Positions 27,906 through 62,721 of a stretch of DNA of 64,000 nucleotides are shown here, one piece after another. The notes beneath the pieces were generated by a model. The model did no database searches, was not told the origin of the DNA, and saw nothing but the letters and a program-made list of their open reading frames with translations. Source of the stretch: Massalongia carnosa (taxonomy: Eukaryota); NCBI GenBank assembly GCA_965645245.1, contig OZ287087.1, positions 992,001 through 1,056,000 on the forward strand, written 5' to 3'. Numbering within the stretch: the stretch's first letter is position 1; every line of letters begins with the position of its first letter. The translations under genes and the position numbers were made by a program.

Positions 27906-30900
27906 AAGGGTGTAGTGGATAAGGTGGAGGAGGAGTAGGAGGAAGAGGGGTGTGGTGGAGGATGAGGTAGAGGAGGGGGGTAGAGAGGGTGGGGGTGACA
28001 AGAAGGTGTAGAGTAAAGGAAGAGATGGCAAGAGACTTTCTTTACGAATTTTGAATAGAAAGCGAGCGATAAAGGGGCGACATACTTCGATATTCGATAG
28101 AAGATAGCATATGAATTTGTGATAGTCTTTATGTTAGTTCGACGTCAACGAAATAAATATTTTATCTATAATCTACATTTTACTTTGTGATAGTCATTTA
28201 AATAAATCTACAATGATTGAAAATCCTAACTCATGTGATAAATATTGCATTCGTGTTTCGTGGTAGTCATGCTAGTAGTCATAATTTACACTCGCAGATT
28301 TTTTCTGTGGGTAATGATATATGGACACCCTACCCGATACTTAGAGTCTAGGTAGCGGATAGGGTGTCTATATGTCAGTACCCTTTTCTGTTGGGTAACC
28401 CAACGATAACCCAACCCAACCCAAAACCTATTGGGTTGGGTTCTCATTTTAATAACCCAACCCAACCAATTCCGCGGCGTAGTTCTTCTTCTAATTTTCC
28501 TAGATGAACGGTTTAATATCGTGTTCAGGATAGCAAGGGTTAAAGAAGATGCTTAGTCTAATGTAAGAACTACTATCCAGGGAAGAAGAATAGTAGTCAG
28601 CTACCTAAGAGACTAAGCATGAAGAAAAGAAATCTATCTACAAAAGAATGTGAAATCTATATACCCCGTTTGCCCTTCTTCTCGAAATTTCCATCAGGCT
28701 CTAGAAGCTTATCTCCGAAGCTTCGGTCGGAAAGAGCGTTTGGATTTAACGCTCCCACACCCGAGTCCTGACACTGACCAGGCAGTCTAGTATCGATTTC
28801 CCGTCTCTACTAAACCAAAACGAGTCGAGGACAAATCGGAGGGGTTCTCGTTTGAAATTCGTCTATTAGCTCAGAGCCTAGATTGTTATCAATTAACGGG
28901 TTCCTCGAACAATGCCCTCTTCTTATCCCACGGGTGTCCTATTTGATGACTAGGTTGCCTCCACCATCCCCGGTACGACTCCGGTTCGGGCCGTGATGCT
29001 CACGGTAGCCATTAATCGCATGGTTCTCATAACCCAAATCCCTTGTATCGTGTAGGGTGTGACCCTTTACTACGTGTCTATATAATTCGATTTCTTTCAG
29101 CCGGAGGGCTCCGTGTTGTAGACAGAGGAGATTCATATGAGGGATATAGCTGAGCCGTGTCTTACGTCTCTAGCTCTCAGCCGATGACTGCATGAAACGA
29201 CTTTAATCTTTATAAGTATAAATGAACGTTGTTAACGAGATCTATAAAAATCTTATTAACGAGGTCTTCGAGAACAATATTAACGAAGTTCCGCTGAACT
29301 GTTTTCATTCGTTTTGTGATCCATTGAGGTCTACCCGTGTAAAATCCAAACCATGCCCGTGTCAAAATGCATTATTTTCAGCTGATGACGGCTAGAAAGG
29401 ACTCGAAACTCTAAAAATATGTACTCCACTATTAACGAGGTACAGATCTGCTTCAACGTGCCCCCGCAGAAACCCATTCACAGGAATGTTTTATTGATTT
29501 GCGACTGTATGTTTTTTGACTGTGTGTTTGTGACTATATATTTGTAACTGTGTGCTTTGTATAACGTGTGATTGATAAATATGTATTTTGCGACTCAATG
29601 TTTTCCTCGAATTTATTTAACATGCCGGGCCTGTTAAATAGGATATTGTTATTCTGCTCCGAGATCGAGTTTTCTTGGGGTGACAGCATTCGCCCCGGTG
29701 CCTTTACGCGTTCTGTTGATCCCAGCTGATGACTGCGTAGGGAGACTTGAACTCTCATGAGCTAGAACTCGTGTCGAATGTGCCCGGGTGTGGGATGATG
29801 GGGCTTCTTTGGTCCACATCTTCTTCCAGCTGATGACTGCATAAAGGGACTTGAACCCTTAGAAGCATGTTGCAAGGACGCGCGCAATCGACCCCCTGGC
29901 GGTTGTCCTTCGTATCCTCTTCCGCACGTACGTCTGCGAGGCGTATAAACGCGTTAAATAAGCATTGTTTTAATGCGAAGAGATAGGAGCAAATCTATAT
30001 TTTTGACGGTCGATCCACGTTGAGGCCTTTGGCGTCTCCGTTGTGAGGACCGATTGAGTAGAAGGAGGAGGAACGATGCTATAGAAGGAGGAGGACCGAT
30101 GGTGTACAAGGAGGAAGACCGATCGATTATGACTATATGACTAGGTAATAATAAAGATATTTACGACCGTGATATTAAGAATTCATATACGAATTAGAAG
30201 TTTAAAGTTTGTTGAATAATCATCAATTCGACGAATCAGCGATATATTTGCAAAACATTTTCGAAAACGCGACTGAAATATTTATTTTAATAACAAAAAT
30301 TTGTGCAAAATCGAATAATTGGTTGTCGCAAGACTTAACCGAACTTCGAAAAGCCATTTGCAGACATCGTCGAGAATAGAAGAATTATCCGTCCAATTTT
30401 AGTCATCGGACGTTGAAAAATATTTGAATCGAGTATTATCATGCAATTCTACAAGCAAAAAAACAAACCTGGTTGACTTTTCCAGAAAATAGAGTAAATA
30501 AAGATGTATTTACCGCGTATAAATACACTAAACCGCGCATATTTGAAAAAACACCCCCGATTAACAAGATAAATGTTCAGTTTTATAACAAAAATTTGTG
30601 CAAAATCGAAAAATTGGTTTTCGCAAGATTTAACCGAACTTCGAAAAGCCATGTGCAGACATCGTCGAGAATGGAAGAATTATCCGTCCAATTTTAGTCA
30701 TCGGACGTTGAAAAATACTTGAATCAAGTATTATCATACAATTCTACAAGCAAAACAACAAACCTGGTTGACTTTTCCAGAAAATAAAGTAAATAAAGAT
30801 GTATTTACCACGTATAAATACACTAAACCGCACATATTTGAAAAATTACCCCTGATTCTACATGAAAACAAGATAAATGTTCAGTTTTATGACAAATATG

Positions 30901-34478: not shown

Positions 34479-34789
34479 GAATCAGATGTTTTACCAGTCA
34501 AACTTCTATTATTAATGAAAAATCTAAAATACGCAATTCGATTATTGAAGATTGCCGAAAATAACTCTATTTGTCAAAGAATTCCAAAAATATATTCGAT
34601 AAAATTCGAAAACATCGGTTTTGACACTAGTTTAAGGAATAACAAATATGTTGAATGGAACGAAGTCGAAAAACAAACAATAAACCGACATACTTGTCAG
34701 CTTATTCCCGTTCTTCATTCCGTTTCCGAAATAGTCCACAAAACTTATAAATTTGGACAATCATATAATTTTATTAAACCTTGGAAATC

Positions 34790-35965
34790 GGTCCTCCTCT
34801 TTCTACACCATCAGTCCTCCCCTTTATACACTATCGGTCCTCCTCTTTCTACACTATCGGTCCTCCTCTTTGTACACCATCGGTCCTCCTCTTTCTACAC
34901 CGTTGTAATACGGATGGCGCTAGAAGGATACGTGATCGCCTACGGCGGTTGCGGGATTAACTAGCATGAGCCAGGCCGTAGTACTTAGTCGCACAGCCGT
35001 CGAGGTTAACACGACGCTACCTTGCCACACAACTCCGAATTAGTTGTTACTACGTTCTAGACTGTTTACAGATCAAACACATGTCGAGGCCGTGGTGGTA
35101 GATTGCCATGGAGTAAGGCGAACTCCTGTGGAGAAACCGTGAACTCTATATGGGATCTGCTGGCCTACTCGGAGCTACTCGATCTCTTGATAGATCAAGA
35201 GTTGTAGCAGGAGTCACGGCTAGCTGGACGCAGCTTGAGCTCGCCTCCCCTATGTAAACTTCAGCTTCCACCTTTATTGCTACGTTGGTAGTGATGTCGA
35301 CTGAATAAACCTACATGACCTTGTTGTCTAGACCTTGTGTCTAGAGGCAGGTCCGCAGTGTAGATAGAGATTCAGTCGGAGGTAACCTTCCATCGCTACG
35401 TTGGTAGTTGTGACGGCAAAATGAAGCTACATAGCCTCGGCGTCTAGACTTTATGTTTAAAGGCGGGCTAGCAATGTAGTGAGGGATCAAGCCGGAGGTA
35501 GAGGTGTTCGACCTTGCAAGGGAAGGTCTAGAAGGCTGCTCGAGGCTGACTAGATAATCCAGCGAACGCCGAGTTCGTAGATGGATCCTGTGGGATGGTT
35601 AGAGGTAATGCGATAAGGTCAGAAGTGGGTTGCAAGGCTCCTAAGGTTCCAAGGCTCCCAAGGCTATAGGCTTGGGGTGAGTAGAATAAATACCAGAACG
35701 AATCCTGTATTATTCGTTAGCAATTAGTCTTTATTCTATGAACAACCTACGTTTGGGTCTCGGACGAGATCTATTGGTCTAAGCACTTCTACATCTATTA
35801 GTTCTTTAGATCACGTATACTCTCGGAGACTAGCACGTAGTAGCTATCGTCCTCTTCTCACGCTGAGCATTTCCCCTTTCGAGATCAGTGTCGCTCGTGA
35901 TTAGCTTACTAGTCTCGTAGCCCATTACAACTATCGGTTGTCCTCTTCCTACACTATCGGTCCTC
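34790..35965 (+). repeat. 23-bp tandem array GGTCCTCCTCTTTCTACACYATC (~6-7 units, split by an LTR)
   Basis: Five units at 34790-34903, more at 35930-35965; same unit inverted at ~30045-30123 and ~44912-44951. Confidence 0.9.
34904..35929. mobile_element. Probable solo LTR, family S3 (1026 bp)
   Basis: TGTAAT...ATTACA inverted termini; imperfect TSD ACCGT/ACTAT within a repeat unit; noncoding, internal ~110-bp direct repeat, AATAAA. Confidence 0.75.
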
Positions 35966-37667
35966 ACAACGGAGACGCCAAAGGCCTCACCGTGGGGCGA
36001 CCGTCAAATATATAGATTTGCTCCTATCTCTTCGCATCAAAATATTAATAATTTAACGCGTTCAAACGCGTCGCAGACGTACGTACGGAAGAGGATACGA
36101 AGGCCAACCGCCGGGGGGGTAGAATGCGCGCGTCCCTGCACCATGCTTCTAAGGGTTCAAGTTCCTTCATGCAGTCATCAGCTGGAAGAAGATGTGGACC
36201 AAAGGAGCCATAATCCCCTACCCGGGTACAGTCGAATCGCGTTCTAGCTCCTGAGAGTTCAAGTCTCCCTATGCAGTCATCAGATAGGATGAACTGAACG
36301 CGTAAAGGCACTGGCGCGAAAGCTGTCACCTTAAGTAAACTCCATCTCGGAGCAGAATAACAATATCCCATTTATAGGCCAACCTGTTAAATAAAATCGA
36401 GGAAAATACAGAGTCACAAAACAAATAGTCATCAATCACACGTTGTACAAAGCACACAGTCGCAAACATACAGTCACAAACAAATGGTCACAAATCATAT
36501 AGTCACAAAAAACACAATCACAAATCAATAACACGTCCCTGTGAAGGGGGTTCTGCGGAGGCTCGTTAAGACAGATCTGCACTCCGATAATATCGGAGTA
36601 TATATTTTTAGAGGTTCAAGTCCTTTCTAGCAGTCATCAGCTAAAATTAATTTATTTTGACACCGGCATGGTGTGGATTTGACAAGGGTAGACCTCGATA
36701 GATCACAAAACGAATAAAAAGAGTTCAGCGGAACTTCGTTAATATTGTTCTCGAAGACCTCGTTAATAAGATTTTTGTAGACCTCGTAAACAACGTTCGG
36801 TCATACTTTTAAATTTTCAAGTCCTTTCATGCAGTAATCGGCTGAGAACTATAGACGTATGACACGGGTCAGCTATGTCTATCACACGGGTCTCCTTCGT
36901 ATACAAAACGGAGCTCTCCGGCTGAAAGAAATAACACATATAGACAAATAGTGTAGGGTCATACCCTATACGATACAAGGCATTTTGGTTATGAAAACCA
37001 TCCGATTGATAGCTACCGTGAGCATCACGGCCCGAACCGAAGTCTTACCGGGGATGGTGGAGGCAATTTATTCGTCAAATAGGACACGCTTGGGACAAGA
37101 AGAGGGTAATATACGAGGAGCCCGTTAATTGATAACAGTCTAGGCCCTTAGCTAATAGACGAATTCCTAACGAGCGCCCCTCCGAGTTGTCCTCGACTCG
37201 TTTTAGTTAGTAGGGACGGAAAGTCGATACTATACTGAGTGGTCAGGAGCATAGTGGTTGAAATCCCTACGAGTCATGGTCGGTTCATAAACGGGAGGAC
37301 TTTATGAATAACGCGAAGTAGGCGTAAAAAACCCCTGAGGCGTGGTATGCAACAGCGGCCACCGTACGGAGACCGTCTGCATAGCCAGAGACGACAGTAT
37401 ACGCATGTCGGTGTAAATAGAGCAGGGGATGTCTATCTCGCTCATAACGAGACCCCGTCGTTTCGAGGGCGCATTAGCTACGGCTAGACTTGCCCTTGAT
37501 ATGTGCTTAAGGAGTAAACTTGGTTTGACCTGGGCGAAAGTGACGTCGTTCACCCCAATCGTAGAAATCATCAATAGTCTTGGCCCCTAAAACGCACCAG
37601 TGATATGAACGAAAACTGGGATAGAGACTTTACGAAGGAGATGTCAACTCTATTTTACCATTCTTAG

Positions 37668-39131
37668 CCTTTGACACGCAATCCAAAAACTATTTCTCAT
37701 CCGTAATTTACATAATTATGCCGAAAATAGCAGCTTATCGATCGAGAGTAGCTGTATTTGTTACAGAATGCAATTCGAAATTAAATTGAACGTCAAGAAC
37801 GGATCTTATTGACGATACCGATATGCAAATTATCCAGATTACAATTGATAAAGTTCGAAATGTGCACATTATCAGCATTTACAATGAAAAAAGTTAAAAC
37901 GATCGAGAAACATATACAATTAACCGACTTTTAGTCAAATATTAACCATTATTCAATGATCAATTCGTAATATATGGAAATTTCAATGAAAATCATAACT
38001 GGTGGAATTCGAAAATACAGCATGCAATTCGATCTGAAAATCTATACAAATAATTAAAATTATAAAAGAGTAGTTTGATTGATACGCCTCATTTATGCAC
38101 ATTTTATGCCCATTTTGGTTGTTCTGCATCTGTTATTGATTTAACCTTTGCAAATACTAAAATCAAAAATGCAATAACAAATTGATCAATCGATAAAAAC
38201 GCAGTCACAGGTTCAGATCATGACCTCATTCGATTTGAATTTATCGCATATTTTAAGAATTTGACGACACATGCAACCGTATTATCAAACAAATACAATT
38301 ACAATAAATCCGAGTATAACAAGTTCTTAAAGTTTTTAGATGAAAATTCAATAAGCTACGAAAAACCAGTTCAAAGTTTATTGAATAATCATAAATTCGA
38401 CGAATCAGCGATTTATTTGCAAGATATTATTATTATTATTAAATTCATAATCGTTGTGAAATCAGCTACAGCCGACCCATGCGAGAAAAGCTATCAAAGT
38501 TTCAAAGAAGGAAAACCCTCATCTAGGGGAAAAAACCTTCATCTGTATACCTACACGTGATCGCTCGACCTCACTTCGCGAATGGTACGATTTGCCAGCG
38601 CCACGTCTACGACACATATGTGTATCAAGAGACTGCCTTCTGTCTCTGTTATAACTAGAGTTTGTGACTATCACTACGCGACAGTCTGGGGGAGGAAGAA
38701 AGACAATCTACAGCTAGCGAAAACTGTGTCAATAGATTAGTCCGCATAAGCCAACGAGCGGAGGCTTGTAAGCCCTTTTCGGTGGTCTGAAGGCGGCGAT
38801 AATCCGTCGTTCCGGCGTCTCTGTACATGTTGCTTCGGCCGTTAACAAACTTGGGGCAGCTGAGTAGTACATGCTTGTGGGAACTCGACGAGAGAATCGA
38901 TAATCCGCCAAGCCAATACGCTCAGTACGCACTTGAATTATGAGACTGCTATCGGATTTGCTGAAGTTCTTATGTAATCCTAGTCTCTATATAGAAAGAT
39001 CTTCAGTAAGCTCAGCGCAGGGATGAGGCTGATGAGCCGCCTGATGCAAGATATTATTAAAGACGTAGCTGAATTATTTATTCCGAAGACTAAAATATTT
39101 GCAAAATCGAAAAATTGGTAGTCGCAAGATT
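37668..39131 (+). mobile_element. 5'-truncated LINE-A (APE region) fused to X copy 2
   Basis: Begins just after the QE of QEPW; continues TISHP..., TGSDHD; rejoins across 38433..39044. Confidence 0.8.
38433..39044 (-). mobile_element. Short 3' fragment of a Tad-like LINE
   Basis: TSD TGCAAGATATTATTA (38418-38432/39045-39059); (TAA)n tail; IQVRTERIGLADY homologous to the LINE-B C-terminus. Confidence 0.88.
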
Positions 39132-40500
39132 TATTTTTTTATTTATTCATCAAGTTTATTAAAACTAAGGTTATGACATTAAACTATTTTATGATATATT
39201 TCTATAATACAAATCAATCAATCAATCAACCAATCTCTGAATCGTCAATTTTGCCCCGTTTTTATACCGTGTTAGTAACACCTAAAAATAATCGAATTTA
39301 GATTTTACAATTTGTGTTTGTAAACTTCGTAAATGTTTCAGCATAAATCAATTCTGATTTTACTGTCGATCTCTTCCCAACCTCCCGTTTCGAGAATTTC
39401 GTCTTCTAGCTGACCTAGTATCCATTTTCTAGTAGCGATTTTTGTTTTAACAATAAACTTTATCAAAATATCATTTCCAATTTTGGTATTGAATAACATA
39501 TTTAAATTGATTGTAGTATCTGCATTTTATTTCATTATTTGAATCTCTTTAAAATAGTGAATGCAGTTCAGCAATAGATGTTCTGGTGTTTGAAGATCGT
39601 TACATCGATGTGTGCATTTCGACGAATTATAATCTTTCAATCGATGTAGATATGATCGGAAATAATAGTGTCCGAACTTCAGCTGTATAATGGTATCAAA
39701 GATCAATTTCGAATAATTGTTTGACAAACGATAAAAACTCGATTTGCTATGTTACATTTCGAATTTCTCGTAAGATTTGCCTTTTAACCTGCATCGTTGC
39801 CATTGATTCGTCCATGTTTTTAGCGTATATTGATAAATTTGACTTTTCAAATAGTCCAATGTGATCGCTGATGACTCCACTAGGATTTGACTGTGACCCG
39901 ATTTCGCCGTTTTGTCTGCAATTTCATTTTCGATAATTTTCAAATGACTAGGAATCCATTGCAGAATTATCTGAAATTTATTTTTGAATAAACATTTGGC
40001 AATCTTTCGAATTTGCTTCGCGTAAATATGATTAGTAAAATTTTGAATTTCATTTATCGCATTTAAACTATCGGAAAATATCCATATTGTTTTTTCATTC
40101 GCGTTCGTCAATTTATATGTCCATTTGACTGTTTGTGAAATCGCACGAAGTTTAGCATTTTAAATGCTTGACTGTTTGCTACAATTTCCAGCTTTTCGAA
40201 ATTGTATAATATTTAATAAAGCAATCTTTTTCAATAAAGTGATCGAAATCATCGATAAAATTGTTCTATTTTTGGATAATTGGTGCAAATGTGACAGCAG
40301 AAGTTGCAAATTTGACTTTTGAACCATCCGTATAAAGTAATATTCGTGATATATCGGAATTCGTAGATTGAATTTTTGACAAAGTCGAATAATAACTTGA
40401 TTTTGCTGTTTCTTTTGACTTATTAATTTGAAATTCAATTTGAAAGGACGAATTCTATGGTTCATAAAGTTATTTGATTGTTCGAATTCATCAGTTTTGT

Positions 40501-43234
40501 TTTTTTTTTTTTATACATTAAGTGTATACATCCTAAGGTTATGATACTAAACTATTTAAGGATATGTTTATATATTACAAATAAATCAATCCTTTATAAC
40601 CTATCTATGTATCGTCAATTTTTCCCAATTTTTACTCCGTGTTAATAATAACCTATAGTAATCGAAAAATATCGAGTTTAAAATTTGTTTTTCTAAGTTC
40701 GCAAATGTTTCAGCACAACTTGTTTCCGATTTTACTGTTCGATCTCTCCGCAACCTCCAGTATCGAAAATATTGTCATCAAGCTGACCTAGTATCAATTT
40801 TCTAGTCGCGATTTTGTTATTGACAATGACTTTAATCACAATGTCATTTCCGATTTTTGTATTAAACAAGATATTCAAGATGATCGTAGTATCGATACTT
40901 TGTTTCATGTTTTGAATTTCATCGAAATAGTGAATGCAATTCAATAACAAGTTTTCTGGTGTTTGTCGTTGATTGCATCGATTTGTGCATTTTGACAAAT
41001 TATGATCATTCAATCAATGTAAATATAATCGAAAATAGCCGTGTCCGAACTTTAATTGCATAATAGTAGCAAATATCAATTTGGAACAGAAGTTTCATAA
41101 ATAATAAAATCTCGATATGCCAGGTTTCATTTCGAATTTCTAGTAGTATTTGCCTTTTGATTTGTATTGTTACCATTTATTCGTCCATGTCTTTAGCATA
41201 TTTTGATTTATTTGATCTTTTAAAGAATCAAATATTATCGCCGAGGACTCGACTAGGATTTGATTATGGCCCATCTTTGAGCTTTTTTCTGCAATTTCGT
41301 TTTCGGTAATATTTGAATGACTCGGAACCCATTGCAAAATCACCTGATAATTGATTTAAATTAAGCGTTTGCGAGCTTTCGAATTTGTCTTGCGAAAATA
41401 TGATTTGTCAAATTATGAATTTCGTTTATCGCGTTTATACTATCAGCAAAAATCCAAATCGTTTTTTCTAAATTCGATAAAATATTAGTATTGGACAATT
41501 CATAGACCCATTTCATTGCTTGTAAAATCGCATGCAGTTCAGCATTTTTAATGCTTGACTGTTTGCTTAATTTCCAGCTTTTCAAAATGGTATGATACTT
41601 GATCAGACAATTTTTTTCGATAAATCGATAAAATTACTGATAATATTACTCTAATTCCTTATAATTGGCGCAAATGTGACTGCAGACGTTGCAAATTCAA
41701 TTTTTGATCTATCCGTATAAAGTAAAACTCGGGATTTATCGGAGTTCATTGATTGAATTTTTGATAGGGTTGAATAATAACTAGATTTAGCAGATTAATT
41801 TGTATTTTCGATTTGAAATTAGATTCCGCACGGCGATTTCAAAGGTTTAATAAAATGATTTGATTGTTCAAATTCATCAGTTTTGTGAACTATGTCGGAA
41901 ATGGAATGAAGAACGCGAATAAGCTGACTAGGATGTCGTTTATTTGTTTGCTTTTCGTCTTCGTTCCTTTCGGCATATTTGTTGTTCCATAAACTAGTGT
42001 CAAAACCGATGTTTTCGAATTTCATCGAATATGAGTTTGGAATTCTTTGACAAATAGGGTTATTTTCGGCAATCTTCAAAAATCGAATTGAGTATTTTTG
42101 TTTTTCATAACTAATCGAAGTTTAACAGGTAAAATATTTGATTCAATTTCCCTCGCCTGAATAGCTGTGGTTTTGAAAGTTCCTAAAATCTTTCGAATAA
42201 TTCGATTTTGTAGGTTCTGAAACAGTTTTCATATTTCTTTTGACCATTATGCCAAATTTCTGAGCCGTAGTCCGAAATAGGAATAATGCATGACAAATAG
42301 AGCTGTCTTCATGCGGTCGGTTTCAGACACCATTCGGATTTCATCAAATTCTGAATTACAAAAAACGATCGATTCTGTAACGGTTCGACCAAGCGTGGTG
42401 CGGACGGCAGGACCTACAGCGAACATAGCATTAGTCCCAGTTATAGTAGAATAGAGCTTGGTCTGCGCACTAAGTATTGTGCCTTTTGTTCGGGAAGGAC
42501 AGGTGGCGCAATGGTAGAAATCTATTCACTATCTCGCTTCGTAACAGATTTGCAGAAGAGATTCGCGTTTCGACGTGTTTTTTGAAATTTAGTTTTCGGT
42601 CTAACCAGACACCCAACCATTTGACTATATTTTTCGGTTCTAGTACTGTCCCGTTTCGTAATTCCAATATTTCTTTCGATACATTTCTTTTCTTTTCGAA
42701 GTAAATCAGCTCGGATTTATCGTCATTAAATTTGACATTATTCGATGCGGCCCAATCAAAGGCCGTTTTGACTTTGATTCCGATTTCTATGCAATTCTGT
42801 TTTGCAGTTTTATTTTCGAAATATATTGCAAAATCTTTAATAAAACTGGGAGAATTTGCATTGAATTTCATTCGTATTTTAGGAAACAAGTGACCAATGT
42901 AAATCAGAAATAGAATAGGCGAGATTGGTGATGCTTGTGGAATTCCTGATTCGAAATAATATGTTTTGCTTTTAATTTTATCAAATATCAAATTGTTCGA
43001 TCGTTTTGTCATGAAATGCTTGACCCATTGAATTATTGTGGGGGGTGGTTTTGGCTTTTTCATAATATTTAGCAGTTGATTAATCGAGATAAAGTCAAAT
43101 TCGCCCTTAACATCGAGTAATAAACATGATAAGACGTTTTTATTTCGATTGGCAATTTCATTATTATGAACAACATTTATTACTGCGTCGATTGCAGAAT
43201 GATTTTTGCGTCCGCCCATCTGTTCGATGTCGAG
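40501..43234 (-). mobile_element. 5'-truncated LINE-A (RT-RNase H-3'UTR-polyA) fused to X copy 3
   Basis: Poly(A) at 40501-40513; ORF 42470..43219 (NHSAIDAV, PISPILF); RNase H NAELHAI, IFADS. Confidence 0.9.
42376..42546. mobile_element. Solo LTR, family S2
   Basis: TGTAACG...CGTAACA, TSD GATTC/GATTT (1 mismatch); inverted homologue of 31147..31317. Confidence 0.9.
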
Positions 43235-44951
43235 CTAAGAATGATAAAATAGAGTTGACATCTCCTTCGTGAAGTCTCTATCCCAGTTTTCGTTCATCTC
43301 ACTGGTGTATTTTACGGCCCAAGACTATTGATGAACTCTACGATTGGGGTGGACGACATCCCTTTCACCCAGGTCAAACCAAGTATACTCCTTAAGCATA
43401 TATCAAGTGCGAGTCTAGCTGTAGCCGATGCACCGGCGAACCGACGGGGTCTCGTTATTAGCGAGATAGACATTCCCTGCTCTATATTAACCGACATGCG
43501 CATACTCTCCTCTCGGGCTTTGCAGACGGTCTCTGTACGGTGGCCGCAATTGCATACCACGCCTCACGGGTTTTTTAACCCCACTTCGCGTTATTTATAA
43601 AGGTCTCCCTTTTATGAACCGACCATGTCTCGGACAGATTTCGACAGCTATGCTCCTTACCAGGCAGTAGAGTATCCATTTTCCGTCCCTACTAACCAAA
43701 ACGAGTCGAGGACAACTCGGAGGGGTGCTCGTTTGAAATTCGTCTATTAGCTCAGGGCCTAGACTTTTATCAATTAACGGGTTCCTCGTATATTGCTGTC
43801 TTCTTGTCCCAAGGGTGTCCTATTTGATGAATACGTTGACTCCACCATCCCCGGTACGACTCCGGTTCGGGCCGTGTTGCTCACGGTAGCCATCAATCGG
43901 ATGGTTTTCATAACCCAATCCCTTGTATCGTGTAGGGTGTTACCCTACACTATGTATCTATATGTTTTATTTCTTTCAGCCGGAGGGCTCCGTGTTGAAG
44001 ACGAAGGAGACCCTTGTGATAGACATAGCTGACCCGTGTCGTACGTCTTTAGCTCTCAGCCGATGACTGCATAAAAAGACTTGAACCTTTAAGAGTATGA
44101 CCAAACGTTGTTAACGAGGTCTATGAAAATTTTATTAACGAGGTCTTCGAGATCAATATTAAGGAAATTCCGCTGAACTCTTTTCATTTGTTTTGTGCTC
44201 AATCGAGGTCTACCCGTGTCAAATCCACACCATGCCCGTGTCAAAATACATTATTTTCAGCTGGACTTGAACAACTAAAAATATGTAATCCGATATTAAC
44301 GGGGTTCAGATCTGTCTTAACGAGCCCCTGCAGAGCCCCCTTCACAGGGACATGTTATTGATTTGTGACTGTGTTTTTTATGACTGTGTGTTTTGTGACT
44401 GTATGTTTGTAATTGTATGTTTGTGACTGTTTGCTTTGTGACTGTGTGCTTTGTACAACGTGTGATTGATGACTATGTGTTTTGTGACTTTGTTTTCCTC
44501 GATTTTAGTTAACAAGCCGGGCCTATTAAATGGGATATTGTTATTCTGCTCCGAGATGGAGTTTTCTTGAGGTGACAGCATTCGCCCCGGTGCCTTTACG
44601 CGTTCTGTTGATCCCAGCTGATGACTGCATGGGGAGACTTGAACTCCCAGGAGCTAGAACGCCTTTCGACTGTGCCCGGGTGGGGGATGATCCGGCTCCT
44701 TTGGTCCACATCTTCTTTCAGCTGATGACTGCATGAAGGGACTTGAACCCTTAGAAGCATGGTGCAGGGACGCGCGCATTCTACCCCCCGGCGGTTGTCC
44801 TTCGTATCCTCTTCCGTACGTACGTCTGTGACGCGTGTGAACGCGTTAAATTAGCATTGTTTTTATGCGAAGAGATAGGTGCAAATCGATTTTTGACGGT
44901 CGTTCCACGGTGAGGACAGATGGTATAGAAGGAGGAGGACCAATGGTGTAG
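43235..44951 (-). mobile_element. Unclassified element X, copy 3 (uninterrupted, ~1.7 kb)
   Basis: Starts CTAAGAATGATAAAATAGAGTTG exactly like copy 1; ends in ~2 units of the 23-bp repeat. Confidence 0.88.
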
Positions 44952-47021
44952 GCTCGTCCGTCTCGAATCTTATCTGTATCGAGTTCTTATATTCAGCGGT
45001 GAAAAGAGCTCTCATCAGTTGTTTGAACTATGTCCGAAACGGAGTGCAGAACGCGAATAAGCTGACTAGGATATCGTTATTTGATTGTTTTTCGTCTTCG
45101 TTCCATTCTTCATATTTGTTGTTCCATACGCTAGTATCAAAACCGATGTTTTCGAATTTCATCGAATATGTGTTTGGAATTCTTTTATAAAGGGGATTAT
45201 TTTCGGTAATCTTCAATAATCGAATAGCATACTTTTTATTTTTTATGAATAATCATAATCTTACTGGTGAGATATGTGATTCAATTTCTATCGACTCATC
45301 TGTTGTTGTTTTGAATGTTCCTAAAATCTTTCGAATCATCCGATTTTGCAAATTTTGAAATAGTTTTTTATATTTCTTTTGACCATTGTACCAAATTTCT
45401 GAACCATAATCTGAAATAGAAACGATGCATGACAAATAAATCTGTCTGCATGCTGTCGGTTTTAGACCCCATTCCGAGTTCATCAAATTTTGAATCGCAA
45501 AGAACGACCGATTTGCAGATGAAATTCGAGTTTCGACATGTTTTTTGTAATTCAGTTTTCGATTTAGCCAGATTCCCAACCATTTGACTATATTTTGCGG
45601 TTCTAGTATGGTTCCGTTGGGTAATTGCAGTGTGTCTTTCGATGCATTTCTTGTCTTTTCGATGTGAATCTGTTCGGATTTATCGTCATCAAATTTAACA
45701 TTATTCGATGCGGCCCAATCAGATGTTATTTTAACTATGATTTCAATTTCTTTGCAATTCTGTTTTGCAGTTTTGTTTTCGACATATCTTGCAACATCGT
45801 CAATAAAACTAGGAGAACGTGCATTGAATTCAATTACGTAATTTCGGAAATAAGTGACGAATATAGATCGAAAATAATATATGCGAAATAGGTGAGCCCT
45901 GTGGAATTCCTGATTCAATATAATAGGTTTGCTTTTTATGTTCATCGATTATTAGATTGACCGATCGTTATGTAATAATATGTTTCACAAATTGAATAAC
46001 TATGCGAGATAATTTCAGAATTTTTATGACATTTAACAGCTGATTAATCGATACAAAGTTAAAAGCTCCTTTGATGTCGAGTTATAAATATGATAAAATA
46101 TTCTTTTTTCGATTTCCTATTTCGATATCATAAACGACGGTCATGACTGCGTCAATTGCAGAATGATTTATGCGTCCGCCCATCTGTTCGATATCTAATT
46201 AATTCGAATTTTCGACGATGTAGGCAATGCGATTTGCAACGATTTTGTCAGCAATTTTACCACAACAGTTTAGTAAAGTGATAATCCGATATGATTTTGG
46301 CAGCCAATGGTCTGATTTATTAGGTTTTTTCAAAAACTGCACCGAATCCTGTTCGCAAGCATAAAGGATTAAGACCGGTTTTGTATAAATTTTTAAAAAA
46401 TCATAAAAAACACGTTTTTCACCGATCGAAACGATTTTTGAACAATTGTGAAATTGATTGCATCAGATCCACATGCTTTTTTCGGATTAAACAAACTAAT
46501 CGCTTTTTGCACCTTGTTTTCTGTCAAATCCGGCCAAATATCGTTATCTTCATTGTTTTGATTCGATAAATCTTCAACATTATCGTCAATAAATGGGTTT
46601 TTTGTGTACATTGCTGCCACAAATGCATCGCATTTGTCATCGAATTGAAAATTTAACTTATTTTTACATTGAATCGGTGGTATTTTTTCGAATATGCGCG
46701 GTTTGGTGTATTTATACGCGGTAAATACGTCTTTATTCGCTGCATTTTCTAGAAAAGTCAACCAAGTCTGTTGTTTTGATTTTCGAATTGCATGAAAATA
46801 TTCGATTCGACTATGTTTAAACGTTCTATGACTAAAATCGGACGGTTAATTCTTCTATTCTCGTCGATATATTGACATTATTTTCCGAAGTTCGGTTAAA
46901 TCTTGCGACCACCAATTTTTCGATTTTGCACATATTTTTGGTCTTCGGTATAAACAATTCAGCTGCCTCTTAAATAATATCTTACAAATAAATCGCTGAT
47001 TCGTCGAATTTATAATTATTC

Positions 47022-50000
47022 TATCAAAAGGTAGTATAGTAGAGAGAGGATAGAACGCTTGCTATAGTTCTATATAGTTGAAATATCTATATTTGTAGAC
47101 TATGTACGTTATGCTAGTATTAGACTAGCGATACGTCTAGCCATTAGCGTGCGCCATAATCGTACGGTAGAAGGTGAGTGCGGCTGAAATGAAGTAGCCT
47201 GATTTGTACATTCTAAAACTCCCACTCAGGCACTGAAATAGCACTCCCCACATGATAAAGAGAAATTCAATAACTCCTACATACTCCATTATAATATCAT
47301 GCTTTCCAGTGGATCACCTGCAGGTGAGTCAGTGTACTCTGCAGGCTAATGCTGCTGGCGATACACGAAAACACCCCCACAGGCTCAGCTGTGGATGACA
47401 CTTTTTTTTTCTTGGGTTAAGGTCGAATTTTTTTACGACAAAGGGCCTCTTGTTTACTCTAAGCCTAAAGCTTTTCGAAAGACAACAATTTTGTCCTTTG
47501 GCAGGGCCTTGGTTAGGCCGTCAGCTACCTGTTCTTCGGTAGGAACATAGCGAAATTCCACTGATTTGTCTTCGATCTTCTCTCATTGGTAGTACCATTG
47601 GATATCAATATGCTTTCACCGCGCGTGTGCCTGGGGATTATTGGCCAAAGCCATTGCTCCTTGATTGGCGCAGTGAATGATGATAGCATTTATGCGAAAG
47701 ATATAGGCAAGCAGGCAAGGGCTACAGAGGTGCTCTGGGTTTGGAGAGAGTGATTCCCAGGGACTTGAGTTGCTGAATATTGGTCGAGAAGACAAAACAG
47801 CCAGACGGCTTCCTTGGTGGCTTGAGTCTAACCCATGTACTCGGCTTCGCATGAAGATAGGGCTACGGTCGGTTGTCGTTTAGAAGACCAGCTAATAGCG
47901 CCACTACCCACATTAAACACGAAGCCAGAGGTAGACCTTCGGGTATGATGATCTCCGGCCCAATCCGCGTCAGTGTAACCATTTAGGGGTTTTAAGTGAC
48001 CTTTGTATGTTAACTGCAACGGTAGAGTGCCCTTGATATATCGAAAGATGCGTTTGGCTGCCTTCCAGTGCGTATCGGTCGGGTTCGAGGCATAGGAGCT
48101 GACTACCGATACGGCGTAGGCTAAGTCAGGCCTAGTGCCTAGCATAGCATACATGAGAGAGCCCATCGCTGATTGGTAGCGGAGGCGAGAGTCATCTGTG
48201 GCCTGATGGCCCTCTGGTGCAGCTTCTATTCGCCCATCCATCGGGGTAGCCACGGGGTTAGTGTCCCACATGCCATGATCGCGTAGTACTTTTTCCAGAT
48301 AGGCCTACTGACCAAGGCGAAGAATCCTATTAACCCGATCCCGAGTTATCGTCATGCCCAGGTAATAGTTGATAGGGCCTAAATCAACTATCGAGAACTC
48401 GTCGCTCAGCAGTTTCTTGACACGTTGTATCTCGGAAAAAGAAGAGCCAGTAATGATTAAATCATCGACGTAAATGGCTACGATAACCCCTTCTTTAACG
48501 AAAACGATAAGGTCGGCGTTGACTGGAACGAATTCATGAGACTTGAAAAAATTAGTGATCGTTTCATACCCGATTCTAGACGACTGTTTCAGGCCATAAA
48601 GAGCTTTCTTCAACTTGCAAACTCTCGTTGACCCGTCATCCGGACCGGTTAGTTGCTCCACGTAGATTTCCTCGTCCACCCATTTGTAAAAGAATGTTTT
48701 TTTTACGTCTATTTGGTGAGTTTCCCAATCATTGGCTGAAGCGATAGCGAAGATGGCTTTATAGCCCATTGGCTTCACTACTGAAGCAAAACTCTCATTG
48801 TAGTCAATGCCTTCACGTTGCTCAAAGCCTCTGACTACCCATCGAGCCTTGTAACGAAGAATATCGTTAGCCGGGCCTCGTTTGATTTTATAAACCCATT
48901 TGCCTCGCAGGGCTTTGCGGTCCGGGGGCAGGGAGGTGAGGATCCCGGAATCATTTTCGTTGATAGAGTCAATTTCTTCCTGCATTGCCCTTCGCCAATC
49001 CTTTTCCTCCCGACTATCTACGGCCTGTTTATAGGTTTTAGGCTCATATGGGTCCGGGTCATTAGCTCGAGCAAGATGAGCCAAGAGAGCTAGTTGGTCA
49101 GGCGAGGGGGAACGAAGTTTTGGATGCTTTGAGAGAATATCTGCCTGGGACCAAGGCTCAATAGCCAGTTGGTTTGCCAATGTCTCTTGTCCAGCGTTTG
49201 ATGGGAGAGGTCCAGTGGGAATTGATTCTATGGATTCATGAGTGTCGACTAAGTCCGTATGAGGGGAGTCCTTATGATTGGTAATTTTTTGCTTTCTTGT
49301 GGGCGGTCCTGACTGTCCAACATGTAGGGCTCTTTTAGTTTGAGAGAATGATAAGGAAGGAGGAGTTGGGGGTTTTTTATCTATCTACTGAACATTGGAA
49401 TAACGCATGACCGCGCCCCGTGGATTTATCATTCGATAGATGTGATTGCCTTCGTATCCTACTAAAGTACATTTGGTGGCTCGTTCCTGAAATATCTTCC
49501 ATCCTGTGGAGGGCTTGCGATTTTGCGCATAGCCAGTCTGTCCTATTATCCTTCGATGTCCTAGTTCTGGTGAGCTGCCGGTGTGAGACTTGTTAGGGGT
49601 GATGGAGAGTCCTACAGTTGGTCGTCGATTTCTTAGGTAGTTGGCAGTGAGAACCATTTCAGCCTAATATTTGATGTCGAGTATAGCGCCTTCTCGCATA
49701 GTGCTGGCTAACTTGTGAAGCGTTTGACCTAGGCGCTCGGCTGCCGCGTTCATTTGTGGATTTCCCGGTACGGTAGGTTTCCACTGAATGCTATGCTCGT
49801 TTCTGAAATTCTCGAAGTCTTTGGAGTCATACTCACCCTCACAGTCCGATCGCAAGCGTTTAATTCGTTTGTCCCAATATTTATTTTGCTTCTTGTAGTT
49901 TTTAAAGGCTTGAAGGACTCCATTTTTGACGCGCAGTAAGGTGACGTGGGACCGTTTATCGAAATCGCAAAGAAAGGTCACCATATATTTGGCGCCATTC

Positions 50001-52076
50001 AAGGCATCTGGGAAAGGTCCTTGGACATCGCTGTGAATTAAGTCCAGCGGTTGCCTGCCTGGTTGGATGGGGGCCTGGTGTGGTTCTACTTAGGACTGAG
50101 CGATGGCGCACGGAGGACAGGCGTCTTGGGGCGGGGGCTTGGTGAGGTCTATTCCTTTTAACATTCCAGCGAACTTGAGAATGTTCTGATTTCCAAGATG
50201 GCCTAAACGAGCGTGCCACATTTTTATCGCCTCGCTATTAATTGCAGCGAGAGCGAGGTTCCCGATTTTAATTAGCTCTGGTACAATCTTCAGGAGACAT
50301 CCATCTCGTTGTAATAGTCCTTGGGAGATGAGATATAGGCCTCCGTCCGGAACGTATAACACATCGAAAAGAGGGAACTCCCGAAGACCCTCGTTACCGG
50401 CACACCGCAACATGACGTTACCTATTCCATTGGGAATTAATACTCCTCCATACCTTGAATAGGAGGGCAATCTGATGTCTTGAATGAGGTAAAGATGGAG
50501 CGATTGTGGGTAATATGTTGGCTAGTTCCAGAGTCACAGATCCAGAGCTTAGATATTTTGGTTATATCCGCGGTGGCCATGAAGGCGCAGAAGGCCCCTT
50601 TGATTGAGTTATTTTTTCCGGTCGGCTTTTGGCTTTGACCTTGACTTTTGGAATTCCTACGACGCTTATTGGACTTACGCTATGAGTCTTGGTTAACGAG
50701 GTGTGGATATTTTTCACGAAACTCGCTCTCTACGTGATAGTCTTTTCGGCAGTTGTTGCAGAACTATGGTCTTGGTGATGATTCGAGAATGGGCTGTTCC
50801 GGATTGAGCTCCTGCTTGGGTTTGAGCGTTTGAAACAGCTGCTATTGCGATTACGGCCTTATCACTGGACTTGCTTGGGTTGATCACCGTGTTTTAGAAA
50901 TGCTGCATAGCCTGACTTAACATGTGCTTGAGTTTACCCATTTTATTGAAGGGATCATGATCCTGAGCATTCGAAATAGCTATTGTATTCGAAGCCTAAA
51001 TTGGTAACTAAGCGATAGATAAGCAAGTTTTCGTCCAGGCTTAGCTTGCTTGAGAAGGTGCAAAGCTTAGTGACCGTGGCGAGAAATTGGGTAACGTAGT
51101 CTGCAGGGCTGCTGCAATCCGATAGGATAAGGTTATCTTATTTTCTAAAGATGTTATTGAGGAATCCCGAACCGCGAGGCTTATAGTTTGACTCAAGCAG
51201 GTCCCAGGCGACGGAAACAGTAGTATGGTTTTCTTTATCGGTGTAGGCATTTCCTTCGCAAGCTAATCGAAGAGAAGTTCAGGCCTTATCTTGGCCCTTT
51301 TTCCATTTGTTGAAGCCATCATTGGGAGCGTTTGGGCGTGGTGCAGTTTCGGTGTTTTCACAATAGATCCAAAGATCTATATTTTTGAGGCAATCTCGCA
51401 TTGCTCGCTTCCATGCTGGATAAACCTCGTGGTCCACTAGCTTAGCAATGCTATCAATAGCGCTATAGGACCCCGATCCAGAGATTTCTTCACTCATGAT
51501 TGAAAGGGTAAATTGGAAGAGCTTGATAGATTGTCCTTGTTAACGGACTGGCTCGAACTAGTGTTTGGTTATACAGAAGTCCGACGGAGTGCTATTATAA
51601 TTGCTTGGTGACTTGGTTCTGGCTCTTAGATCGAAAGGATCACAGTCGCTGGGCGGTTCTAGGTCAGATTTCGATGTGGACTGACCGGGAGTGACTCAAG
51701 GCTCAGGGATGATGGTACAAAGCAATCCAATTTTGATTGATCTGAGTTATCCTCTAAGAGAAAAGCAACGATTTCCGCACTAGCCGCCTGTAATGTATGT
51801 TCTGAATCCCGTTCAAGCATTGTTGCCGGCCTATTATTTAGTTGAGACTCTGAGAGTAATTGGATCTCGGCAAGAGTGCCACGTAGGAATAGGGCAGTGA
51901 TTGCTATAATAGATCTAAATACAGAAGCAGATACAGGTGCAAAGATAGATTTGAGGCGTTCAGTTGTGCCTTTAGGGTTGATAAATCGAGAGCGTTTTTT
52001 ATAGCTCGAAGCCATAATCCTGCGGTAGAAGGTGAGTGCGGCTGAAATGAAGTAGCCTGATTTATACATTCTAACA
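47022..52076 (-). mobile_element. Ty1/copia LTR retrotransposon (Copia-2), degenerate; 5' LTR partly deleted
   Basis: Perfect TSD TATTC (47017-47021/52077-52081); left LTR 47022..47218, only ~66 bp of the right LTR (52011..52076); gag 51279..51497, WHARLGH, RLRSD, RT YKARWVVRGF/IYVDDLII, RH GYTDADWAGD. Confidence 0.92.
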
Positions 52077-52899
52077 TATTCAATAAACTTTGAACTTGTG
52101 TTTCGTAGCTAAATGAATTTTCTTCTAAAAACTTTGCGAACCTTTCCCAATCGGCTTTATTGCAATTGTATTTGTTTAATAATGCGGTTGCATATGTCGT
52201 CAAATTCTTAAAAGATGCGATTAATTCAAATCGAATGTCTTCATGATCTGAACCTGTGATAGCGTTTTCATCGATTGATCAATTTGTTATAGCATTTTCG
52301 ATTTTAGTATTCGCAAAGGTTAAATCAATAACAGATGAAGAACTTCCAGAATGGGCATAAAATGTACATAAATCAGGCGTATTAATTAAACTACACTTGT
52401 TTAATTTTAACTATTTGACTAGATTTTCAGATCGAATTGCATACTGAATTTTCGAATTCCACCAGTTATGATGTGCATTGAAATCTCCACATATTACGAA
52501 TTGATCATTGAATGTAGGTTGATATTTGACTAAAAGTCTGTCGATTGTATATGTTTCTGTATCTTTTTGACTTTTTTCATTGTAAAGGTAGATAATATGC
52601 ACTTTTCGAACTTCATCAATTGTAATCTAGATAATTTGCATATCGGTATCGTTAATAAGATCAGTTCTAGGCGTGCATTGTAATTTCGAATTACATTTTG
52701 TGACAAATATATAGCTTTATCTAGAGCGATAAGCCGCTATTTTCGGCATATTGCATGTGAATGACGGATGAGAAATAGTTTTTTGACCGCGTGTCCAAGT
52801 TTCCTGAAATAAACAATATCAATTTAATTTAATACTCCATATTCCAGAAATAGAATCATTGCATTCGTTGACTTTGCACAATTATGTTGACATTTTGTG

Positions 52900-54581
52900 T
52901 ATTTTCGATATTTGTCAACGAACGCTGTCATGCCATTACAAAGCGGATAACTCGTCAGACGATTTTCGAACGTTTAACGATGCAATCATTTCACATCGTT
53001 CATTATTTGACTGATGATTTTGATTGCAATTGACGCATTTGACAATGACATGTGCACACGCGATTTTGGATTTGCAAGTTGTGCATTCATGATTTTGAGT
53101 TCATGATTTTGTGCACAGATATTGCATTTCGCTTGATTTTTTCATTGATAATGCTTGTGTCCAAATTTTTGGCAAGTGATGCATTGCGTATTCGGACGAA
53201 CGGAGGTAAATATTTTCATGTCACAGTGTCTTCCCGTGATATTTTCACATTTCAACGCATTTAAAGCCATATTTCTATCATTGAACGTCAAAACAACGGA
53301 TGATTTGGTCTTGTTTTGACGATCAGGTGCTAGCTATCTTGGAATATCGCATAATTGCATATTCGAATTGAACTTTTGGATTTCATCCTGCAAATAATGC
53401 ATTTTTTCATCAAACGTTACAATATTTATGCTATGTGCGATTACTTTAAACCAAGTTTCATCTTTTCGAACTATTCGTGGGTCGAATAAATGCTCCCATA
53501 TTGTTTTATTATTCAAAAAATCATCAGCAGTGTTTTCAGGACTAGTAGTCAGGACGATATTTTGACCCGTTTTAGACTTTTCTACCGTGTTGACAACAAT
53601 AGTAAATTTCGCGACTTTAAAAAGCGAATTGATTTGATTTCGAAACAACAGTGAATCGATGTCGCCGATTTGAGCTTTCGGTTTAATTATTAATCGTCTT
53701 GATTTAATCGCGTTGAAATCTTCCGTATTATCGAATTTATTCGAGTTAGAATTGTTATTCGATTTTTTCTTTCGAGAAACTGTGGTCCAATTCTCGGAAT
53801 TAGCAGTTGCTCTTCCGAGCATTTGACTCCATGTTTTAGTTGACTCGTTAAGCTGCGGCCCCGGGACCCCAGCTGTTCCCCTCCGATTGGCTTGGTTGAC
53901 GTTTTTAGTCAAATTCGAATTTCCATTCGAATTTGCTTGCGTAGGTCGCACCGATTGTCCCGTTGTTTCTGGAACTTTGCTAGTTTGTTCCAGCACCCTA
54001 TTCAATTTCCAATCAATCATTTCCAGCGTTGCTTTAGGCTTGATTGATTTTATTGTCAGTAGAGAATTTATATTATCGATGACAATAGCCGTTTCGGGAT
54101 TCTGATTTAGTACGAATGACTGAAATAGTGCGTTTTTAGCCGTATTTAGTAGTCGAATTGATTTCGTTTGATTGATGACTTCTTGACTTTCAATCGAATA
54201 CTCGTCAAATGTTCGTCTTTTATTGCGTTCGATTGGCGGGCTTAGTCATATATTCGAATGTAATGACGGCATAGGTAAATTGGTAGTAAAATCACCAGAT
54301 TAAGCAATAAAGACTTTCGCTTTAGGGGTCGGTATAGAGGGTGAGGACGAAAATTCCCCTGACTAGTCTATAGCTTCTATAAACTCGTCGGATGGGGGTG
54401 AGCTCCCTATCATGGCTACTGAAGATGGCGCGGGGGAGTTGTTTTGGGGAAGACCCGGGGGGGTACTTGGGCGGGCCAGTAAATTTCTAGGTGGGGGGCC
54501 TTGGGGGGGTGGTCTCGCCAAAAATCGCCTAGTTCTAGGGAGTGCCGAGTGTGCTACCGGGTTGATTACCTTGTTGAACAT
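52900..54581 (-). pseudogene. LINE-A ORF1 (Pro-rich N-terminus, C-terminal Cys knuckles), disrupted
   Basis: ORFs 54363..54581 and 53334..54020 (TWSQM, WTTVSRKK); CITCQKFGH, CNICAQNH, CVNCNQNH at ~53000-53190, also present at ~17030-17210. Confidence 0.75.
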
Positions 54582-55107
54582 GCCTTTTCTATATCCCTTT
54601 TATCCCCACCAAATAGTTTATTCTGATATTCCCCAGACGTACTAATCAGAATAGATATTACAACGATTTACTGGTTAAATAACTCTTTCTTTCCTGTCCC
54701 TATTTAATTGACAATAACAAGTCAAATAAATCCTTATCGGTTTAAAGTAGACCGTTCCTCGCTTAGGCAGTAAGTCGGATTTAACCCTTTATTAGATACT
54801 ACGGTAGTTGAAAAAAATGAAAAGTTTGATCAAATAGGATAATTTTAGTCTTTTTTAATGAATATAAAATCAAGTACGATATAGAAAATAGGGACCTCCT
54901 ATTCTGATTAGCCTGAAACAGGGCCTTTGGTGTAACCCTATTGAGGACTTTTTCCCCTTACTTTCAGCGGGCCGTCCAATGTTGAGAAATAAATGTCTGA
55001 AAGTAGATTGTTGGTCTGCCCGTTCGATGATGAACAAGAAAATCCAAAATAACCTTATTCACAAAATATGCACTGAATATGCAAGAAAAATACTGCTTGC
55101 GCAGGTA

Positions 55108-56447: not shown

Positions 56448-57253
56448 TACCAGAAACCTTAAATATAGAAATGAACTTCAAAAATTTTGACGCGACGACA
56501 ACAGGTGTACAGTAACGCAACAGTGAGTGTTTTTTGTGGATAATTTCGGTGATAATAACTGAGGTCTATGCGACAATAAAATCGAAGAGATATCGAAAAT
56601 TGAGCGATTTTGATAGAATTGTAGATGTTTTTGGTATTTTATAAATTTTAGGGGGCGTTTTTGGAGGGAGTTGGATTGATGCGATGTCAGGGCATAGAAG
56701 GAATAAGGGCTAAGCTAACTAAGCGGGGCTTAGTTCTACGGCTAGGCTTAGTCATATGGAAAGCAGTTGGTCTGCGTTACGCGGCTGGTATCTACTGCCG
56801 AGAGTATAGTACGAGCGATCGAGATATACGAGGATGCTCGTACGATTAGTGAGCGGATGGTACGATACAGTCAGCACAGTGTCCACGATACAGTCAGCAC
56901 AGTGTCCACGATGCAGTCAGCAGAGTGTTTAGCCGGCTTATCCGGTAGGAGTAATGGGCGGTCAAGATAGTTACAGTATCAAGGGCCCAGAGGGTCAAGG
57001 GCTTCGGTCCGGGTATATAAGGAGGCTGCTCGAGGGAGATGCAATCTTCAACGATTAGTCTTCCGCTTTACCTACATACTTCTTTTAGTATATTAGTATA
57101 GCAAATCATTAGTGTCTTCACATTGTCACATATCCCTAGGCCTGGTGTCTGATAATCGCCAGGTCTGACTCTTACAATTCTAATCGTTCTATCCTTCAAG
57201 GAGTGACGATCCGTTGACACATTTATACACCTTCTATACACTATCGTCCCGCC

Positions 57254-62244: not shown

Positions 62245-62721
62245 ATCCAGCAAAACCCTTCTTATTCGCCATCTCATCACCATCGGAACTTTCTGCTTTC
62301 TCGTCCGGCACCTCATCATCACCATCAGTATCTTCTACTTCCTCGTCCGACTCCTCATCACCCTTTTCTTCCTTGAGACTCTCGCTGGAGGAGCATTCGG
62401 AGACAACAATCTCGTACTCCTCACCGTCTTCACCTAAATCAACAAACCATCAACGCTAGCGTTACCGAGCTCGGATCTCTGCTGCTAATCGCCATCGTCC
62501 CCTTCTCCGCTACTTCTAGCGCTCGGAGCGGCATCGGCGACCCAGCATTACCGAGAAGCTAGTGATATTTACATCTACCTACGTCAAGCGCCAGGTATTC
62601 GCGCTTTCTACACAACAAACTTGCTATCTACGCGAGATCTTCTATCACGTCCCTACACACTCCCTTCCGCGTTCGAGTACTGTACGTGTTGGAGGACCAG
62701 CACTATAGGAGAGGAGGCAAT

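Follow-up and report, generated by a model that had tools for sequence, protein, structure and literature searches.

A truncated LINE and a non-coding passenger element probably inserted together, by one target-primed event, in an older LINE of Massalongia carnosa

The window analysed here is a stretch of 64,000 nucleotides from Massalongia carnosa (assembly GCA_965645245.1, contig OZ287087.1, positions 992,001 to 1,056,000 of the forward strand). In it, an old long interspersed nuclear element (LINE) of a subfamily called LINE-A1 is interrupted by a composite insertion of 4.5 kb. This insertion consists of a 5'-truncated LINE of another subfamily, LINE-A2, joined to a non-coding element called X. 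The best reading, and a supported one, is that LINE-A2 and X arrived together in a single event of target-primed reverse transcription (TPRT), as a reading of the sequence alone had claimed. The host belongs to one subfamily and is in register, most sister fusions are enclosed by a duplication, and the divergences of the two parts track each other.

The first line of evidence is the target-site duplication. The left 13-mer, TCATCAGTTTTGT, lies at 40488-40500 and is followed by 12 T at 40501-40512. The right 13-mer, TCATCAGTTGTTT, lies at 45012-45024 and is identical to the left one at 11 of 13 bases. This bears out the sequence-only reading, which had placed a duplication here with the poly(T) behind its left copy. 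The left copy has the usual LINE-A1 sequence of the intact site, and the right copy carries two changes. A corresponding unbroken site is present in the insert's own LINE-A, near 41874. In a comparison of the window with itself, LINE-A occupies 39134-40500 and returns at 45012; between these lie a further LINE-A (40502-43234) and X (43235-44951). The enclosed content had been listed as poly(A), truncated LINE-A, X and 60 bp. These parts are all there, and the list lacked a solo long terminal repeat (LTR) of 171 bp at 42376-42546. Because the solo LTR has its own 5-bp duplication and TGT...ACA ends, it must have arrived later.

Removal of the insert restores the host LINE-A, as had been proposed. 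The top genome-wide matches for 40180-40500 and for 45012-45330 are an identical set of intact LINE-A copies, on which the two segments overlap by exactly 13 bp (for example at C8:1631927-1631939 and C22:604451-604463). Across 51 intact copies, identity to the left half and identity to the right half are correlated (Spearman 0.86). Left of the site, identity to the insert is about 80% for the host subfamily and reaches 92-94% for the insert's own subfamily. Both host halves are one LINE-A subfamily, in register and distinct from the inserted LINE-A2. An origin of the halves from different subfamilies would speak against a single event; it fails because both halves share their best intact copies and rank together. 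By our own estimate, an independent LINE-A fragment would start within 20 bp of register at about 20 of about 5700 positions. The joint from 40499 to 45024 occurs in sequencing run X1, where its short side has only 31 letters, so that intact paralogues would produce it too. Run X1, which may be the assembled sample itself, also contains the filled left junction.

The composite is one of a large family. A census by a 23-nt pattern from the end of X gives 74 matches against 0 control matches, and all 74 were inspected. There are thus at least 74 copies of X in the genome, with one fixed 3' end; since the census is anchored on that end, a solo X gene with another end would escape it, and the DNA search scored 40 of 120 candidates. 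Sense-oriented LINE sequence directly adjoins the X end in 71 of the 74 (62 by blastn and 9 more by blastx). The truncated partners include LINE-A, LINE-B, LINE-C and more distant relatives of LINE-B, and they are broken at many positions. A usable relative with an empty site exists for 50 copies, and in one of these (L040, with a 4-bp overlap) the host sequence of the left side resumes beyond X; five of six apparent resumptions are whole neighbouring LINE copies at offsets of -56 to -60 and were left out of this count. X is therefore not inserted into LINEs, but caps their truncated 5' ends. L040 (G000:C8:1593531 onward) is the sole X copy in which the same LINE-A resumes, possibly through a jump from LINE to X and back to LINE. 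Two further fusions of X and LINE-A lie in the window, each split by later insertions, at 17293-17718 plus 28774-30123 and at 35930-37668 on the minus strand. The latter has an array remnant at 34787-34901 and contains the most diverged X seen, with 7.1% private changes.

Enclosing duplications are common among the fusions examined. The scan for duplications covered 42 X copies with long left flanks, and the LINE 3' end was located for 26 of them, this copy included. A repeat of 12-20 bp encloses both the LINE tail and X in 20 of the 25 other fusions, compared with 1 of 78 mismatched controls (score of at least 12); at a score of at least 11, the controls give 3 of 78.

The ages of the nested parts run in the expected order, from host through LINE and X to solo LTR. 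Private changes, counted against the six nearest relatives, amount to 10.6% and 8.9% in the host, 5.9% and 7.0% in the inserted LINE, 4.2% in X and 2.4% in the solo LTR. Across the family, LINE-part and X-part divergence are correlated (Spearman 0.85, slope 1.16, in 18 fusions, out of 38, that have close relatives in sufficient number), as co-insertion predicts.

Several observations weigh against this reading. The duplication at this locus has two mismatches, where our own estimate expects about 1.3 at the age of the insert, and the automated scan missed it. Elsewhere, three fusions (L045, L048 and L075) are without a detected duplication, the repeat match of L024 is non-adjacent, and the duplication of L031 was found by eye only. 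The X end adjoins antisense LINE sequence in L072 and unidentified DNA in L078, and in L062 the LINE match begins only at base 102. In MINE of Magnaporthe grisea/oryzae, a fusion of the sequence WEIRD with a 5'-truncated MGL LINE, the junctions have no microhomology according to the available part of PMC2104539. Finally, the LINE part of this copy has more private changes than X (154/2501, 6.2%, versus 57/1349, 4.2%; Fisher p=0.012). LINE divergence exceeds X divergence in 14 of 18 fusions, and also in the window's two other fusions, for which the reference sets are poorer. With the direction recurring in this way, the excess may be systematic. A history in two steps finds its main residual support here.

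X has little coding capacity and no tail of its own. Its longest open reading frame is 89 aa. Four units resembling a B box or T arm are confined to the sense strand, and about 290 nt separate the 5' end from the first of them (both results are for the source copy on contig C9 described below). The 5' end varies among copies, and X lacks both a poly(A) and a LINE-like 3' tail. Folding z-scores are about -3 at best, and only locally. A search of Rfam with E up to 5 gave a chance match only, ARAGORN detected no tRNA in five X loci, and simple descriptors of HDV-like and hammerhead ribozymes matched neither strand of X, in a search run without a positive control. A metagenome pattern search for relatives of X gave one match, of 21-22 bp only and judged to be chance.

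Other identities and routes were considered and rejected. A Helitron, rolling-circle or other independent insertion of X is ruled out by the single resumption of host sequence in 50 copies and by the sense LINE neighbour in 71 of 74. A SINE (short interspersed element) brings in the reverse transcriptase by means of a 3' tail and needs no partner for insertion; X is tail-less, and the same two counts speak against solo insertion with a target-site duplication of its own. A retrocopy of telomerase RNA is rejected, as the 23-mer of the X 5' array occurs in 0 of 20 contig ends and telomeric contig ends are TTAGGG arrays. Splicing as the route of fusion is rejected as well, since the base beside the junction in the empty site is T in 28 of 44 and no acceptor pattern is seen.

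The 60-bp segment between X and the right duplication had been called filler. It was not made at this site: the segment is common to 11 X copies, with at most one mismatch, and derives from another repeat. It is made of three collinear pieces of that donor repeat, followed by a final C which the donor lacks; 22 further pattern matches of the 60 bp are the donor itself. The donor (L152-L159, for example G000:C1:2315666) is an uncharacterised repeat, about 1.1 kb long, that has tandem units of low complexity inside it.

One X copy with the 60-bp segment, the C9 copy (L003/L042, at G000:C9:1637225-1639039), can be recognised as a source. Its own 12-bp duplication follows directly behind the 60 bp, and the C9 copy is therefore itself a retroposed X-LINE fusion. 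Beyond the duplication come unique DNA and then a divergently oriented gene with an SH3 domain, which we take to be Sho1-like. This unique flank, in lengths of 122-523 bp, is present in eight other X copies (9 matches including C9), and in five of the eight it lies inside their own duplications. Flank lengths overall range from 5 to 523 bp. The LINE junction of C9 is found in 0 of the 10 other copies of its group. Because eight copies carry the C9 flank and none of ten kept the LINE partner, a fused copy can serve as a source, and the behaviour of X is that of a non-autonomous passenger. Judged from these sequence relationships, a fused X copy can demonstrably give rise to further copies.

In the X body, the C9 alleles at positions 412, 413 and 468 are common to 8 of 9 C9-type copies. 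Measured against the group majority, C9 shows 0 differences and the others 0-4.8%, the window's copy being the most diverged. The latter shares derived alleles at 412, 413 and 1271 and is unlike C9 at 468 and 1142, and its end falls on the very base at which the C9 insertion ends. From this allele pattern and the identical end base, the window's X would be an early daughter or a sibling of the C9 copy, either being possible. In contigs from runs X3 and X5, which belong to two other studies, position 45011 is followed by C9-type flank, and the source locus is therefore not private to this assembly.

The lack of differences in C9 contrasts with up to 4.8% in its offspring, with a GC-losing spectrum. 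Either the source is under selection, or repeat-rich regions mutate at a much higher rate. L062 (G000:C20:748921-750780) is a mosaic that combines non-C9 body alleles with the 60 bp and flank of C9, which suggests a switch between two X templates within the 23-bp array. At least two more groups of X copies share 5' extensions of variable length (L026, L028, L039, L047, L049, L054, L057 and L079; L029 and L075), and these imply other source loci.

The junctions between X and its LINE partners show a base preference. In 59 unique junctions, G occupies position -1 in 44 and position -2 also in 44. Comparison of positions -1 to -3 with the empty site in 44 junctions gives 12 differences, of which 6 are changes to G, counter to the GC-losing bias of the genome. 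These changes weakly suggest that X RNA supplied the bases by annealing. At the other end of X, 17 of 58 arrays finish with a non-templated C that the 23-bp repeat does not encode, as would be expected from copying of a 5' cap. Junctions can recur: L023 (C9:794969) has the same LINE-A breakpoint as the window's copy, with an X of another type, the two fusions being independent, and several other X-LINE junctions are repeated among copies.

A mechanism can be proposed in which a LINE-A2 ribonucleoprotein carried out one TPRT event on an older LINE-A1 copy. The endonuclease presumably nicked the target at a T-rich end that could pair with the poly(A), an arrangement seen in the anatomy of the site. 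The reverse transcriptase would have copied about 2.55 kb of LINE RNA as far as an A|CY site and jumped from there to an X RNA, entering it at its defined 3' end. Pairing of 2-4 G:C nucleotides may have aided the jump, whose visible traces would be the fixed end, the orientation and the G bias. X would next be copied to its 5' end, including the 60 bp that, as the shared copies show, was already in that RNA. Repair would leave the 13-bp duplication seen today, and the solo LTR would insert afterwards. At the level of the family, X would be transcribed from earlier fused copies, with a start in or upstream of the 23-bp array. It would then be separated, presumably by 3' processing at its fixed end, from the LINE to which it had been fused, and be captured by any of several LINE families.

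It is probable that this insertion arose in one TPRT event with a jump from LINE RNA to X RNA, X being a passenger without a LINE-like tail. A wider proposal is held with less assurance and seems only somewhat better than an even bet: X may be a self-propagating, tail-less, non-autonomous retroelement copied solely as the 5' passenger of LINE reverse transcription. Its fused copies, with a promoter-like 5' array and a 3'-end signal, would give off X RNA without the LINE part, which could reseed on any LINE family and carry upstream flank along.

The main rival places the fusion at the RNA level. Here a processed X RNA is ligated to a cleaved fragment of LINE RNA, and the product then undergoes one TPRT event. 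It predicts equally well that the X end is fixed, that X lies in sense, that the LINE breakpoint varies and that there is one duplication, and the CC bias at the LINE side could reflect the preference of a nuclease. RNA ligation is also offered beside template switching for U6/LINE-1 chimeras in the accessible part of bioRxiv 10.1101/2025.02.02.635956. The changes to G at half of the junction differences tilt weakly towards annealing of X RNA instead, and ligation is judged unlikely, if still the strongest competitor. Copying from genomic DNA is a more doubtful route. The nascent cDNA would invade an X locus such as C9 and read into its flank, so that X or at least its 5' extension could be acquired with C9 transcription unneeded. 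The variable flank lengths and the mosaic L062 would suit it, and jumps of non-LTR reverse transcriptases to DNA are mentioned in the portion of PMC2104539 consulted. It leaves unexplained why X is entered at one precise base in the absence of long homology, and it is at variance with the C9 body alleles in 8 of 9 C9-type copies and with the apparent cap-derived C at array ends.

The remaining alternatives are still less probable. In a history of two steps, LINE-A2 would have inserted first with its duplication, and X later at the 5' boundary of LINE-A2; the greater divergence of the LINE part in this copy is what such a history would predict. X would have had to land exactly between truncation point and duplication, here and at 20 sister loci, yet a clean insertion of X is seen in 1 of 50 copies and the ages of the parts correlate across fusions, which makes this very improbable. 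The last alternative, that a ready-made X-LINE chimeric transcript from an existing fused locus was retrotransposed whole, could draw on the identical LINE-A junction of L023 and on the other recurrent junctions. In L023, X has neither the 60 bp nor the alleles that are diagnostic of this copy, and the LINE part is only about 91% identical, compared with 93-94% for unrelated LINE-A2 copies. With the source junction kept in 0 of 10 C9-type copies, transfer of a whole chimera is already largely refuted and has the poorest prospects of all. The breakpoint shared with L023 would fit better with a junction hot spot, as in MINE.

Table 1. Features of the composite insertion and of the interrupted host LINE, in window positions.
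Feature	Position	Strand	Remarks
Host LINE-A1, 3' half (RNase H region and tail)	39134..40500	-	Matches intact LINE-A; about 89% to nearest copies
RNase_H domain match within host LINE-A1	39755-40159		Domain search
Target-site duplication, left	40488..40500	.	Equals subfamily sequence
Poly(A) tail of inserted LINE (12 T on the plus strand)	40501..40512	-	
5'-truncated LINE-A2, subfamily unlike the host's; truncation inside reverse transcriptase domain	40513..43234	-	93-94% to nearest copies
RVT_1 domain match in inserted LINE-A2	42473-43234		Domain search
Solo LTR, 171 bp, TGT...ACA, 5-bp duplication GATTC/GATTT	42376..42546	.	Later insertion; 2.4% private changes
X, 1.7-kb non-coding passenger, oriented as the LINE; fixed 3' end ...CATTCTTAG at 43235	43235..44951	-	
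Minisatellite of 14-15 bp within X, length differs among copies	44362..44493	.	
5' monomer of X, 23 bp, in about 1.5 copies (elsewhere, X elements have 0.5-26)	44912..44951	-	
60-bp 5' segment ('filler'), three collinear pieces of another repeat	44952..45011	-	End base as in C9 copy
Target-site duplication, right, two changes	45012..45024	.	
Host LINE-A1 resumed	45012..47027	-	About 90.6% to nearest copies
Host LINE-A1, further continuation	52077-54968		Beyond copia-type insertion

The LINE-A family encodes endonuclease, reverse transcriptase and RNase H domains in its second open reading frame (ORF2). The host copy is split once more by a copia-type insertion at 47028-52076, with an RVT_2 domain and end repeats at 47153-47216 and 52011-52074. 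A young chromodomain Ty3-type element fills 56685-64000 of the window; its terminal repeats are 99.5% identical, and it has a pol frame of 1174 aa. The genome as a whole measures 52 Mb in 25 contigs, and its telomeric contig ends carry TTAGGG. Domain searches find chromodomain Ty3, copia, hAT and Tc1 elements in addition to the LINEs. The genome is probably that of a fungus, and 0.80 of the words sampled occur in a lichen-metagenome run. One telomere (L089, G000:C3:1-260) differs from the other telomeric ends seen in that a longer variant unit recurs among its usual hexamers. Several non-telomeric contig ends (L084, L088, L096, L100 and L102) look bacterial in composition and coding style, which suggests that contaminant sequence was joined at scaffold ends.

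The duplication itself is an ordinary hallmark of TPRT, and MINE-type fusions are already known from Magnaporthe. What is new here is the tracing of a source: by descent of its flank, a fused retroposed copy was demonstrably the donor of offspring that switched their LINE partner, none of ten having kept it. At least 74 copies with dated and traceable flanks address a question left open in PMC2104539, as far as the available text goes, namely whether the non-coding partner is a host gene or a parasite. The donor evidence points to a passenger element that exploits template jumping by the reverse transcriptase and moves promoter-side DNA around the genome. Such an element would need a precise step of 3'-end formation, and the named source locus makes both ends of the X RNA directly testable. 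If the wider proposal is true, the passenger mode is a form of LINE parasitism distinct from that of SINEs, and it would explain why no parent gene was found for WEIRD.

X resembles SINEs, and the 5' transductions made by LINE sources, in being non-autonomous, in its B-box-like motifs, in the star phylogeny of a master copy and in carrying flank from the source. It is unlike a SINE in having no tail and in standing beside sense LINE sequence in nearly every copy.

A second comparison is with the chimeras of U6 or other small RNAs with LINE-1 in mammals. In the accessible part of bioRxiv 10.1101/2025.02.02.635956, these too consist of a full-length sense RNA 5' of a truncated LINE, with a target-site duplication, an endonuclease site and an origin by template switch or RNA ligation. 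Their 5' part comes from a host gene for a known cellular RNA, whereas X is without a match in Rfam and has been traced to a source that is a retroposed fusion in its own right.

The closest system is MINE. The available part of PMC2104539 reports no solo WEIRD, six shared junction pairs and the motif GCC*A/U; it concludes that WEIRD is not a transposable element and assumes an unassembled gene. WEIRD transcripts appear under stress, according to the part of PMC3978060 consulted. Apart from PMC2104539, a literature search that reached few subscription journals found nothing on where WEIRD comes from or on fused copies that act as sources. As far as these sources go, both systems join a copy of a long non-coding RNA in sense to variably truncated LINEs within one enclosing duplication of 10-20 bp, no solo copy is found in either, and both have shared junction hot spots with a C-rich motif. 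The LINE-side motif is CY, often CCCG, for X fusions, in place of GCC*A/U. X measures 1.7 kb and has at least 74 copies, compared with 1.1 kb and 31-33 copies for WEIRD. Unlike MINE, the X fusions draw partners from at least three LINE families and have a variable array of the 23-bp 5' monomer and variable 5' extensions; the 5' end of X varies, whereas WEIRD is described as 'full-length'. For X a fused copy is seen as the source, where for WEIRD a gene was assumed. The X fusions thus have the testable structural features of MINE, a likeness that concerns anatomy.

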